From contig JAFXAC010000059.1 in NCBI GenBank assembly GCA_017522125.1, forward strand, positions 1-58,650: DNA of 58,650 bases. The letters are read 5' to 3'. Made by a program: the position numbers and the translations under genes. Within the stretch, counting starts at the first letter, position 1, and each line of letters opens with the position of its first letter. Of the stretch, positions 32,791 to 35,373 are shown in pieces. A model generated the notes under the pieces. That model was not told the origin of the DNA. It ran no database searches and saw nothing but the letters and a program-made list of their open reading frames with translations. Source of the DNA: Clostridia bacterium. Lineage in GTDB: Bacteria > Bacillota > Clostridia > Oscillospirales > CAG-272.

Positions 32791-32829
32791 GAAGCTGTCG
32801 CGCCTATTGGCGCGACAGCTTCTTTTTTT
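32791..32829 (+). other. Perfect 14-bp GC-rich hairpin between nrdD and trxB-like, with a T7 run only on the antisense (+) strand
   Basis: GAAGCTGTCGCGCC-tatt-GGCGCGACAGCTTC-TTTTTTT. In the sense (minus) direction the stem is followed by GCATAGAGGG (RBS), not a U tract. Confidence 0.7.
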
Positions 32830-32831
32830 AT

Positions 32832-35213
32832 TTAGGCGGTTGCCATTACCTTTATAAATTCCTTAACGCCCGTGATATCGGGGAAGGTGGTCACGTCGTC
32901 GCCCACGATGTAAAGCAGCGTGGGAGCCTGCTTCGTGCCGTACATTACGGCAAAGCCGGGATCATCCTCGTGATATACCTTGTCGTAGGCTATTCCTGCC
33001 TGATCGAGCAGAGATGCCGCGACCTTGCACTTGGGGCAGGTCTTGGTTGCGAAAAGCACTACTCTGCCGCCGTCGGAAACCGTAGCCTCTGCCGCGGGAG
33101 CAGCGTTTACGGTGTTGTGAGCCTTGGAATCAAAGCTCTCCATCGAAGCGGGAATATCGTATTCAAGTCTTTCCTTGTACTCCTGCGACTTGCCGTCGTT
33201 CCAGTTCTGAACGGGACGGTAGTAGCCCGTGATACGGCTGTATACCTCGGCGCGCTTGCCACAGGTGGGGCAGGTGAAATGCTCGCCTGCGATGTAGCCG
33301 TGGTCGGTACATACGGAGTAGGTGGGAGAGAGCGTGTAGTAGGGCAGACGGTAGTTCTCCGCTATCTTGCGAACGAGCGCGGCAGCAGCCTTCCAGTCGG
33401 GAAGCTTCTCACCAAGGAAGGTGTGGAAAACGGTTCCCGATGTGTAAAGCGTCTGAAGCTCGTCCTGAACGTCAAGCGCGGTAAATACGTCGTCCGTGTA
33501 ACCAACGGGCAGGTGAGAGCTGTTGGTGTAGTAGGGAGTTTCAGCGTCGGAAGCCGCGATAATGTTGGGATAACGCTTCTTATCGTGCTTTGCAAGGCGG
33601 TAAGAGGTGGACTCTGCGGGAGTTGCCTCAAGGTTGTAGAGGTCGCCGTACTTCTCCTGATAGTCGGAGAGGCGCTCTCTCATATGGTTGAGGACGTCCT
33701 GCGTGAACTTCTGCGCCTTCTTGCCCGTCATATCCTCGCGGATCCAGCTTGCGTTGAGGCAAGCCTCGTTCATACCGACAAGACCGATGGTGGAGAAGTG
33801 GGTGTTGAACGTGCCGAGATAGCGTCGGGTGTAGGGGTAAAGTCCCTCGTCAAGCAGCTTTGTGATGATGTCGCGCTTGATCTTGAGCGATCTTGCGGCG
33901 ATATCCATCATGTGGTCAAGGCGGCGGTAGAAATCCTCCTCGTTCTCGGCAAGGTAGCCAAGACGGGGCATATTGATGGTAACTACGCCGACCGAGCCCG
34001 TGCTTTCGCCCGAGCCGAAGTATCCGCCCGACTTCTTGCGAAGCTCACGGAGGTCAAGACGCAGTCTGCAGCACATGGAGCGAACGTCGCTCGGCTCCAT
34101 ATCGCTGTTGATATAGTTGGAGAAATAGGGAGTTCCGTACTTCGAGGTCATCTCGAACAGCAGTCGGTTGTTCTCGGTTTCCGACCAGTCGAAATCGCGG
34201 GTGATGGAGTAGGTTGGAATGGGGTACTGGAAGCCGCGGCCGTTTGCGTCGCCCTCGATCATTATCTCGATGAACGCGCGGTTGACCATATCCATTTCCT
34301 TCTTACACTCACCGTAGGTGAAGTCAGCCTCCTTGCCGCCGATGATGGCAGGGCGGTTCTCGAGGTCAGGGGGGCATACCCAGTCCAGCGTGATGTTGGA
34401 GAAGGGCGCCTGAGTTCCCCAACGGGAGGGAGTGTTAACGCCGTAAACGAAGGACTCGATGCACTTCTTTACCTGATCGTAATCAAGATTGTCAGCCTTC
34501 GCAAAGGATGCAAGATATGTGTCGAAGGAGGAGAACGCTTGCGCGCCCGCCCACTCGTTCTGCATGATTCCGAGGAAGTTTACCATCTGGTTGCAGAGCG
34601 TTGCAAGGTGCTTTGCGGGGGCAGAGGTGATCTTGCCGGGGATCCCGCCAAGGCCCTCCTTGATGAGCTGACCGAGCGACCAGCCTGCGCAATAACCCGT
34701 CAGCATGGACAGGTCGTGCAGGTGGAGGTCCGCGTTGCGGTGAGCAGAGGCAATCTCGTCGTCGTAGATCTCGGAGAGCCAGTAGTTCGCCGTGATCGCG
34801 CCCGAGTTCGAGAGGATGAGTCCGCCGACCGAATAGGTAACGGTGGAGTTTTCCTTAACTCGCCAGTCGATGTTCTTAACGTAGGAGTCAACGGTGTCCT
34901 TGTAGTCAAGGATGGTGGACTTCATGTTGCGGAGCTTCTCTCTCTGGCGGCGGTAGAGGATGTACGCCTTAGCAACGTCCTCGTAGCCCGCCTGAGCGAG
35001 AACAGACTCAACGCTGTCCTGAATGTCCTCAACGGCGACCTTGCCCTCGACTATCTTCGACTCGAAATGCGAGGTCACGCGAAGAGCGATGAGGTCGATA
35101 ACGTTGGGGTTGTATTGTTTCTCACAAGCCTCGAATGCCTGAGTGATTGCACGTGTTATCTTGGAAATGTCAAACTCTACGACCTTTCCGTTTCTTTTTA
35201 CTACCTGATACAT
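32832..35213 (-). CDS. nrdD: Anaerobic (class III) ribonucleoside-triphosphate reductase with a fused C-terminal glutaredoxin/NrdH-like CPKC domain
   Basis: N-terminal ATP-cone (VVKRNGKVVEFDISKI). Finger-loop SMCCRL. Zn ribbon CPTCG and glycyl-radical motif SRITGYYRPV. An extra ~105 aa follows (VVLFATKTCPKCKVAASLLDQAGIAYDKV...) with the Grx fold pattern. Confidence 0.92.
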   Translation of the reverse strand: MYQVVKRNGKVVEFDISKITRAITQAFEACEKQYNPNVIDLIALRVTSHFESKIVEGKVAVEDIQDSVESVLAQAGYEDVAKAYILYRRQREKLRNMKSTILDYKDTVDSYVKNIDWRVKENSTVTYSVGGLILSNSGAITANYWLSEIYDDEIASAHRNADLHLHDLSMLTGYCAGWSLGQLIKEGLGGIPGKITSAPAKHLATLCNQMVNFLGIMQNEWAGAQAFSSFDTYLASFAKADNLDYDQVKKCIESFVYGVNTPSRWGTQAPFSNITLDWVCPPDLENRPAIIGGKEADFTYGECKKEMDMVNRAFIEIMIEGDANGRGFQYPIPTYSITRDFDWSETENNRLLFEMTSKYGTPYFSNYINSDMEPSDVRSMCCRLRLDLRELRKKSGGYFGSGESTGSVGVVTINMPRLGYLAENEEDFYRRLDHMMDIAARSLKIKRDIITKLLDEGLYPYTRRYLGTFNTHFSTIGLVGMNEACLNASWIREDMTGKKAQKFTQDVLNHMRERLSDYQEKYGDLYNLEATPAESTSYRLAKHDKKRYPNIIAASDAETPYYTNSSHLPVGYTDDVFTALDVQDELQTLYTSGTVFHTFLGEKLPDWKAAAALVRKIAENYRLPYYTLSPTYSVCTDHGYIAGEHFTCPTCGKRAEVYSRITGYYRPVQNWNDGKSQEYKERLEYDIPASMESFDSKAHNTVNAAPAAEATVSDGGRVVLFATKTCPKCKVAASLLDQAGIAYDKVYHEDDPGFAVMYGTKQAPTLLYIVGDDVTTFPDITGVKEFIKVMATA

Positions 35214-35251: not shown

Positions 35252-35280
35252 ATTATACTATATATTGTGGTCAATGTCAA
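35252..35280 (-). promoter_or_regulatory. Sigma-A type promoter of nrdD (TTGACA-17-TATAAT)
   Basis: On the minus strand, TTGACA (35280-35275) and TATAAT (35257-35252). The spacer and -10 element are overlapped by the proximal NrdR box. Confidence 0.65.
35255..35270. promoter_or_regulatory. NrdR box, proximal
   Basis: Minus strand CCACAATATATAGTAT, matching the consensus acaCwAtATaTwGtgt. Confidence 0.7.
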
Positions 35281-35287
35281 GAATGAA

Positions 35288-35303
35288 AAACTATATATTG
35301 TGG
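35288..35303. promoter_or_regulatory. NrdR box, middle
   Basis: Minus strand CCACAATATATAGTTT. Its centre is 33 bp from the proximal box. Confidence 0.7.
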
Positions 35304-35320
35304 TTTTTTTGAAAAAATAG

Positions 35321-35336
35321 CACAATATATAGTTTT
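35321..35336. promoter_or_regulatory. NrdR box, distal
   Basis: Plus strand CACAATATATAGTTTT. Its centre is 33 bp from the middle box. Confidence 0.65.
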
Positions 35337-35373
35337 GGGTTTTCATTTTTGTGTATTTTGCCTATGAATAAAA

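Follow-up and report, generated by a model that had tools for sequence, protein, structure and literature searches.

Background

Some class III ribonucleotide reductases (RNRs) draw on a protein thiol as reductant. According to the tabulated and reviewed systems (PMC9176816 Table 1; PMC4390871), thioredoxin reduces the NrdD of N. bacilliformis and an NrdH-like redoxin serves that of M. barkeri, a precedent to which the initial annotation of the present locus had pointed. The locus lies in contig JAFXAC010000059.1 of a Clostridia bacterium (assembly GCA_017522125.1; order Oscillospirales, family CAG-272), whose whole analysed stretch of 58,650 nucleotides is called the window below. Here the nrdD gene, which encodes a class III RNR, runs on into a C-terminal thioredoxin-fold domain with a CPKC site, and a thioredoxin reductase (TrxR)-like gene follows it. 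The product is probably (roughly two chances in three) a thiol-dependent class III RNR with a fused dithiol reductant, which the adjacent TrxR-like flavoprotein would recharge.

In their active site the closest described enzymes are the NrdD2 proteins of N. bacilliformis and T. maritima. This group was defined by a third cysteine and a glutamate, and some members also have a methionine (Wei et al. 2014, as cited in PMC4493059). As summarised there and in PMC9669993 and PMC4390871, NrdD2 enzymes have a double-cysteine finger loop, a cysteine on strand beta-A and the glutamate, all of which recur in the window, and a protein dithiol has been proposed or shown as their reductant, as it is proposed here. 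In the same summaries NrdD2 enzymes have a free redoxin and an SCCR finger loop and occur in organisms without formate metabolism, whereas the window enzyme reads MCCR, carries its redoxin, has a TrxR gene in its neighbourhood and belongs to a genome with a pyruvate formate-lyase (PFL). The NrdD3 enzyme of M. barkeri (Wei et al. 2015, as described in PMC5704485 and PMC9176816) is, like the window system, a class III RNR with a dedicated small redoxin and a reductase. NrdD3 has neither the Met nor the Glu and reads QCCR in its loop (PMC9669993); it works with an NrdH-like redoxin that is a protein of its own, and an Fe-S enzyme of the FTR type, not a flavoprotein, acts as the reductase.

A redoxin domain joined to an RNR polypeptide is also known. 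Facklamia ignava has a Grx::ATP-cone::NrdB protein, whose fused glutaredoxin (Grx) was shown to reduce a class I RNR (Rozman Grinberg et al. 2018, PMC6187632). There the redoxin sits at the N terminus of the radical-generating subunit, in an aerobic enzyme that depends on glutathione, whereas the window fusion is C-terminal, on an anaerobic catalytic subunit, and is paired with a TrxR in a genome in which no glutathione synthesis gene was found. Table S1 of the same paper lists one 'Glutaredoxin:NrdD' of subclass NrdDd, from Lachnospiraceae bacterium TWA4 (WP_082039398.1), and does not study it further. In the literature searched this entry is the single record of a redoxin on an NrdD, and neither that literature nor the RNR reviews and extension analyses contained anything on the biochemistry of such a protein, on a clade of NrdDs with a C-terminal redoxin, its pairing with a TrxR, loss of the HRRxxxR motif from that reductase or cysteine pairs in the linker. 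The principle of the fusion is foreseeable from the known systems.

Architecture and fold

The fusion gene is an uninterrupted 793-residue open reading frame (ORF) on the minus strand (Table 1). Its product has, in order, an ATP-cone, the NrdD core, a 30-residue disordered linker and a 77-residue CPKC domain. Membership in the class III NrdD family is supported by PF13597, TIGR02487 and the full-length NCBIfam model NF006126 (1139 bits, cut-off 548). The last of these stops at residue 686, leaving 107 residues beyond it, which agrees with the extension of about 105 residues past the glycyl-radical motif that had been read from the sequence. The span first assigned to the extension, 32832-33160, corresponds to residues ~685-793 and the stop codon. 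The strings quoted for the protein, SRITGYYRPVQNWNDGK (which holds Gly663), SMCCRL (residues 379-384) and VVLFATKTCPKCKVAASLLDQAGIAYDKVYHEDDPGF...APTLLYIVGDD, are all found in the translation. Since the tail is kept in relatives, has invariant motif residues and has a confident predicted fold, it is no chance read-through of the frame.

The extension does model as a thioredoxin fold. Its AlphaFold2 model has a mean predicted local distance difference test (pLDDT) score of 87.5, with values above 90 over the folded part. The topology is beta-alpha-beta-alpha-beta-beta-alpha, and helix 1 begins with CPKC. In a Foldseek comparison of this model with the PDB, 154 entries matched at E<=1e-3, and all of the leading ones have the thioredoxin fold. 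The best were spinach Trx m and E. coli Trx, with TM-scores of 0.65-0.75 and a probability of 1.0. As modelled, the domain has both hallmarks of the fold, with a CxxC where helix 1 begins and a cis-Pro ahead of strand 3. The tail alignment took in 27 relatives. In a 40-sequence alignment C726, P727, C729 and A763-P764-T765 are invariant, and CP[NK]C is found in 141 of the 150 HMMER matches to the tail domain.

The tail had been described as glutaredoxin/NrdH-like. The thioredoxin fold with its CxxC stands, and the domain is neither an NrdH member nor a classical glutaredoxin. PF00462 (Glutaredoxin) matches residues 718-753 at 24.6 bits against a gathering threshold of 22.9, covering only positions 1-36 of the 60 in the profile, and the NCBIfam Grx models give 17-23 bits against cut-offs of 88-129. 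A classical glutaredoxin was rejected on the grounds of CPKC in place of CPYC, Q-A-P-T in place of TVP and the lack of the GGxD glutathione-binding residues. An NrdH-redoxin was rejected as well, with the CVQC and WSGFRP motifs missing and zero matches to TIGR02194 at E<=0.01; NrdH structures are weak profile matches (~26 bits). For a canonical thioredoxin the site would be WCGPC, not CPKC, the tail has 77 residues against ~105 and the N-terminal beta-alpha unit is missing. PF00085 gave no match to the window protein at E<=0.01, and the TrxA model NF006898 reached 21 bits against a cut-off of 138. The cis-Pro region Q-A-P-T-L-L does resemble the I-P-T-L-L-L of thioredoxin.

A profile search of PDB sequences with the tail found weak relatives at 25-35 bits. 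The best were the Pyrococcus glutaredoxin-like protein disulfide oxidoreductase (PDO) and the desulfothioredoxin of Desulfovibrio, followed by thioredoxins and last by NrdH and Grx. The Pyrococcus/Thermotoga PDO (1j08/1a8l) and desulfothioredoxin (2l6c) share with the tail a CPxC site, the thioredoxin fold and an xPT cis-Pro motif, the match itself being weak (35 bits, E ~1e-7). PDO consists of two units and is free-standing, whereas the window redoxin is an attached domain. Because of its CPKC site, its Q-A-P-T-L-L region, the zero NrdH match and the missing glutathione-binding residues, the tail as modelled is a minimal thioredoxin-fold dithiol redoxin outside these named families.

The same CPNC...QAPTL module was seen in three other forms, which may be chimeras of assembly or gene calling: with a TrxR-like N-terminal part (P0162, P0166, P0239), after lipoprotein-type signal peptides (P0149, P0160) and as a tandem repeat protein (P0141). 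On one metagenome contig a protein with a zinc ribbon, TPR and the same redoxin domain is encoded between the fused NrdD and the TrxR-like gene (L096 1543-2112).

The full-length NrdD model has a pLDDT of 68.7. The tail domain is again well folded in it, and residues 703-714 are disordered (pLDDT below 50). The linker varies in length and sequence among relatives. At least two linker cysteines are present in 77 of 136 close relatives (57%), mostly as CxC (58) or CxxC (14), and 50 of the 136 have a cysteine-free linker, the window copy among them. Examples with a cysteine pair are L017, L022, L024, P0043 and P0133. Such a pair is reminiscent of the two mobile cysteines at the C terminus of class I/II RNRs, and class III RNRs are said in a review (PMC4390871) to be without an external C-terminal disulfide relay. 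Since the window linker has no cysteine pair, the pair cannot be essential to the basic mechanism.

Active site of the NrdD core

The window NrdD aligns with T. maritima NrdD (4coi) at an E-value of 2e-40 in phmmer. Tyr174-Cys175 correspond to Tyr124-Cys125 of the T. maritima enzyme, Met380-Cys381-Cys382-Arg383 to Ser328-Cys329-Cys330-Arg331, Glu529 (in N-L-E-A-T) to Glu495 (in N-I-E-Q-V), and Gly663 in SRITGYY to the radical glycine of RIVGY. Cys175, Glu529 and Gly663 are invariant among the aligned relatives, as is the Cys3His zinc site C635/H638/C648/C651. The RxxGY glycyl-radical motif, the zinc ribbon and an adjoining radical-SAM activase gene are those of a class III enzyme.

The initial annotation had called for a comparison of the finger loop with formate-type and thiol-type enzymes, and Cys175, MCCR and Glu529 give the thiol-type pattern. 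The third active-site cysteine that NrdD2 has beside the finger-loop radical cysteine is present (C381-C382), and so is the active-site Glu of NrdD2 (Tm Glu495 / Nb Glu438; here E529). A strict match to the formate type is absent. NrdD1 enzymes have MGCR and no Glu, and the window enzyme has the Met alone in common with them; in an alignment, the formate-type P. copri NrdD has MGCR and a Leu at the Glu position (PMC11226230). MCCR is the commonest double-cysteine motif, at 83% (Burnim et al. 2022, PMC9669993), and the active-site Glu has been proposed to be essential for formate-independent reduction (PMC9669993). By its sequence the active site qualifies as the thiol type and not as the strict formate type.

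Distribution of the fusion

The survey that had been suggested found a conserved fusion, widespread among the genomes of the order. A search of 5.8 billion proteins with the tail only gave 62 clusters, all of them NrdDs of 779-802 residues. With the core, the 120 best matches are at least 86% identical and, bar one incomplete entry, 787-802 residues long. They come from metagenome-assembled genomes (MAGs) of Clostridia, Ruminococcaceae or Clostridiales and are annotated merely as 'ribonucleoside triphosphate reductase'. Both the tail and SMCCR are present in all 136 scorable close relatives.

A scan of 185,579 species genomes for the motif TKTCP[KN]C[KR] gave at least 591 confirmed loci, the best 80 of which were analysed. 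In 79 of these 80 loci the redoxin and the glycyl-radical motif share one reading frame; a contig end truncates the last locus. SMCCR is present in all ORFs long enough to include the finger loop, and all 74 long ORFs have the Glu motif YNLEATPAE. A TrxR-like gene with CAVCDG lies directly downstream in 77 of the 80, at a median gap of 61 nucleotides. Among these 77 neighbouring flavoproteins, 72 have Q-N/D/K in place of HRR and five keep HRR, including an Acutalibacteraceae record of strain SVS042 that has no MAG label. One metagenome homologue has the same gene order.

Even sampling of genomes, free of any motif, covered 301 genomes of the order and 399 of the class. The tail is found in 126 of the 301 (61 of 152 genera), in 65 of the 399 and, within the family of the source organism, in 16 of 18 genomes, its own included. 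The frames in this sample are almost always 780-870 residues long and are therefore fused. The fusion is common; it is no rarity.

Three NrdD types occur in the order (compared through the loci L097-L101 of other genomes), the fused one, with MCCR and Glu, in the gene order nrdG-nrdD::trx-trxB. Genomes without the fusion have an unfused NrdD with MCCR and Glu, an MGCR formate-type NrdD or no close match. The unfused MCCR+Glu type is about 52% identical and has nrdG overlapping downstream, and the MGCR NrdDs without Glu were seen in other genomes of the order (L100, L101). Two 90-residue redoxins called between nrdD and trxB (P0140, P0142) were considered as traces of a separate-gene ancestor and rejected. 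They are split fused genes, the calls being artefacts of a frameshift (L094 4677-5273) and a masked N-run (L093 4869-5273), with the redoxin in the NrdD frame. Many of the other small tail matches are fragments of fused NrdDs, so that this search brought no separate-gene ancestor to light.

Gene neighbourhood and putative regulatory sites

The nrdG gene, encoding the radical-SAM activase, lies upstream of nrdD on the same strand, and each gene has a promoter of its own (Table 1). The palindromes at the nrdD promoter are NrdR-box-like by resemblance only. A perfect hairpin occupies the spacer between nrdD and trxB. It is followed by a T-run on the plus strand alone, and it scores as a terminator only antisense to nrdD and trxB.

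The TrxR-like gene begins 54 nucleotides downstream of nrdD. Its product keeps the FAD motif GAGPAG, the CAVC site (132-135) and GGGNSA, and has V-Q-N-L-A-T-L-T at the place of HRRxxxR. HRRxxxR is the criterion by which reductases are called NADPH-dependent (PMC10880999, PMC5627308), and the protein departs from an NADPH-dependent TrxR both in this motif and in scoring below the TIGR01292 cut-off. Its nearest relatives in the PDB are Firmicutes NADPH thioredoxin reductases, which read VHRRDTLRA there. An identity as an FFTR was rejected, the protein being far closer to the Firmicute NADPH TrxRs (235 bits) than to the FFTR of C. acetobutylicum (134 bits). Since the HRR motif is lost, the donor to this flavoprotein is probably not NADPH. 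NADH is a candidate, or possibly reduced ferredoxin or flavodoxin. The non-NADPH thioredoxin reductases FFTR, TRi and NADH-TR of clostridia and anaerobes (PMC10880999, PMC5627308) resemble the window flavoprotein in having the low-Mr TrxR fold and an intact CxxC without HRRxxxR. The window protein keeps GxGxxA, and its Q-N-L replacement differs from the TQ/NGK of TRi and is not described in PMC10880999 or PMC5627308.

Table 1. Features of the nrdD::redoxin locus, in window coordinates
Feature	Position	Strand	Basis or remarks
nrdD::redoxin fusion gene, 793 aa + stop	32832..35213	-	ORF translation, Pfam and NCBIfam
ATP-cone, residues 3-92	34938..35207	-	PF03477, E 5.7e-24
NrdD (class III RNR) catalytic core with glycyl-radical domain, residues 121-685	33159..34853	-	PF13597, E 8e-189; TIGR02487, 513 bits (cut-off 326)
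Cys175 of NrdD core	34689-34691	-	phmmer alignment to 4coi
Finger-loop Met380-Cys381-Cys382-Arg383, double-cysteine MCCR type	34065..34076	-	Aligned with T. maritima SCCR 328-331
Glu529 of NrdD core	33627-33629	-	phmmer alignment to 4coi
Gly663, radical glycine	33225-33227	-	phmmer alignment to 4coi
Linker, residues 687-716 (IPASMESFDSKAHNTVNAAPAAEATVSDGG)	33066..33155	-	No Cys in the window copy
C-terminal thioredoxin-fold redoxin, residues 717-793	32835..33065	-	PF00462, AlphaFold2, Foldseek, invariant residues
Redoxin active site Cys726-Pro-Lys-Cys729	33027-33038	-	
Redoxin cis-Pro motif Ala763-Pro764-Thr765	32919-32927	-	
Hairpin, 14 bp, GC-rich, perfect, in the 54-nt nrdD-trxB spacer	32791..32822	.	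Sequence reading and terminator scan
TrxR-like flavoprotein, 305 aa	31860..32777	-	TIGR01292, 301 bits (cut-off 343)
nrdD promoter, TTGACA-17-TATAAT	35280-35252	-	Promoter scan, 12/12 consensus positions matched
nrdD promoter with NrdR-box-like repeats	35252..35340	-	Three ACCACAATATATAGT-like palindromes overlapping and preceding the promoter
nrdG, radical-SAM activase, 230 aa	35374..36066	-	TIGR02495 (NrdG2), 195.5 bits (cut-off 131); Pfam Radical_SAM
nrdG promoter, TTGACA-17-TATAAT consensus	36123-36095	-	Promoter scan

Genome-wide context

The source genome has 1.82 Mb and is 92% complete. The fused NrdD is the sole RNR detected in it, with no class I/II RNR genes found. The NrdD tail is also the sole PF00462 match in this 92%-complete genome, and the flavoprotein adjoining nrdD is the sole close TrxR homologue. 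No glutamate-cysteine ligase (gshA/gshF; PF04262) was found in the 92%-complete genome, which makes glutathione-dependent chemistry unlikely. One further ORF has a thioredoxin domain, in addition to the canonical thioredoxin discussed below. A second glycyl-radical enzyme is encoded besides the PFL. The PFL ORF (contig C55 11658-13406; L011 1438-3531) has 697 residues and covers TIGR01255 positions 2-664 of 744; the glycyl-radical part at its C terminus may be absent or lie in a separate gene. With this gene content a TrxR-driven route is available, and probably formate too.

Proposed mechanism and alternatives

From the architecture, fold and residue pattern, and from the conservation of both the fusion and its neighbourhood, we infer every electron-transfer step as follows. 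NrdG would set the glycyl radical on Gly663. Nucleotide reduction would then turn the pair formed by Cys175 and Cys381-382 into a disulfide, with Glu529 as the base. The CPKC domain would swing on its disordered linker of ~30 residues and reduce this disulfide, in its own or the partner subunit, by dithiol-disulfide exchange. The TrxR-like flavoprotein encoded 54 nucleotides downstream would re-reduce the CPKC domain. The proposal of the initial annotation, that a covalent fusion hard-wires the reductant to the enzyme, is supported by the fold, the thiol-type active site and the conserved fusion, and would describe the function of the tail.

Several points weigh against this thiol-dependent reading. 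The full-length model, of moderate confidence, is silent on docking. The class III active site is buried, and a redoxin would somehow have to reach it. Met380, which formate enzymes use, is retained in the finger loop, and an MCCR enzyme has the residues to work with formate or with thioredoxin (Burnim et al. 2022, PMC9669993). The genome encodes a PFL (TIGR01255, 1094 bits against a cut-off of 994), so formate is probably available, and with Met380 retained formate use is possible. One canonical WCGPC thioredoxin is encoded elsewhere in the genome. The adjacent TrxR would therefore be a general reductase, not necessarily dedicated to NrdD; being the sole close homologue, it presumably serves the canonical thioredoxin also.

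Catalysis could instead run on formate, with a thiosulfuranyl radical formed between Cys175 and Met380 as in the E. coli enzyme, and the redoxin would then only activate or repair the NrdD. It would keep the zinc-ribbon cysteines, the finger-loop pair or sites damaged by oxygen traces reduced, so that the glycyl radical can be installed and maintained. An activating role of thioredoxin is reported for the class III RNR of E. coli (Padovani et al. 2001, cited in PMC4390871), the redoxin is attached ~30 residues past the glycyl-radical/zinc-ribbon domain, and the conserved Met380 within the SMCCR of all relatives fits this role as the PFL does. A purely formate-driven enzyme, however, would have no need of the invariant extra finger-loop cysteine and Glu529, and the formate-type enzymes of the order read MGCR and are without the Glu. 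That the fusion is tightly and almost always coupled to a TrxR gene suggests stoichiometric electron transfer, not occasional repair. Formate as the catalytic reductant is for these reasons unlikely here. The enzyme might also use both, relying on formate whenever fermentation yields it and otherwise on the tethered redoxin, with the fusion as a back-up route. MCCR with Glu suits both chemistries (PMC9669993), and the PFL and the TrxR module are both encoded, but no class III enzyme is known to use both reductants, and such bifunctionality is judged improbable.

Thioredoxin-fold domains serve as sensors elsewhere. The redoxin might sense redox state or oxygen, or it might have a regulatory function or act as a chaperone for a further partner (NrdG, for example), and in each case would not donate electrons to NrdD. 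Nothing specific to such a role was found in the window data. It sits poorly with the strict conservation of the CPxC and cis-Pro signature and with the disulfide reductase gene that is nearly always adjacent; dithiol reduction of the [4Fe-4S] cluster of NrdG would also be implausible by redox potentials. A regulatory role is accordingly given very little weight.

The thiol-dependent reading can be extended, tentatively, to nrdG - nrdD::redoxin - trxB(QNL) as a self-contained electron wire that bypasses both formate and NADPH. Electrons would pass from NADH or reduced ferredoxin/flavodoxin to the HRR-less flavoprotein and on to the tethered CPxC domain. In most relatives the linker CxC pair might then act as a swinging pair of the class I/II kind, ahead of the Cys175/Cys381-382 disulfide, and the large MCCR+Glu group might be thiol-dependent in general. 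This extension, taken as a whole, is possible but doubtful. If true, it would mean that class III enzymes independently gained the external-disulfide relay which reviews deny them.

Implications

The fusion beside a disulfide reductase gene is strong genomic evidence for a thiol route in the MCCR+Glu group, and it offers a one-polypeptide system for studying that route. It is also a handle on how a redoxin may reach the buried class III active site, a question raised by the T. maritima structures. Together with the linker cysteine pairs of relatives it is relevant to the view, given in a review (PMC4390871), that no external C-terminal disulfide relay exists in class III enzymes. The HRR-less TrxR raises the separate question of the electron source for DNA synthesis. 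About 40% of the genomes sampled from a major order of gut and rumen bacteria have the module, which is therefore probably the chief source of deoxyribonucleotides (dNTPs) for a large fraction of the anaerobes in the gut. The layout of nrdD::redoxin with a TrxR is common to hundreds of gut Clostridia, and it points to protein thiols, not formate, as the probable reductant of the window enzyme.

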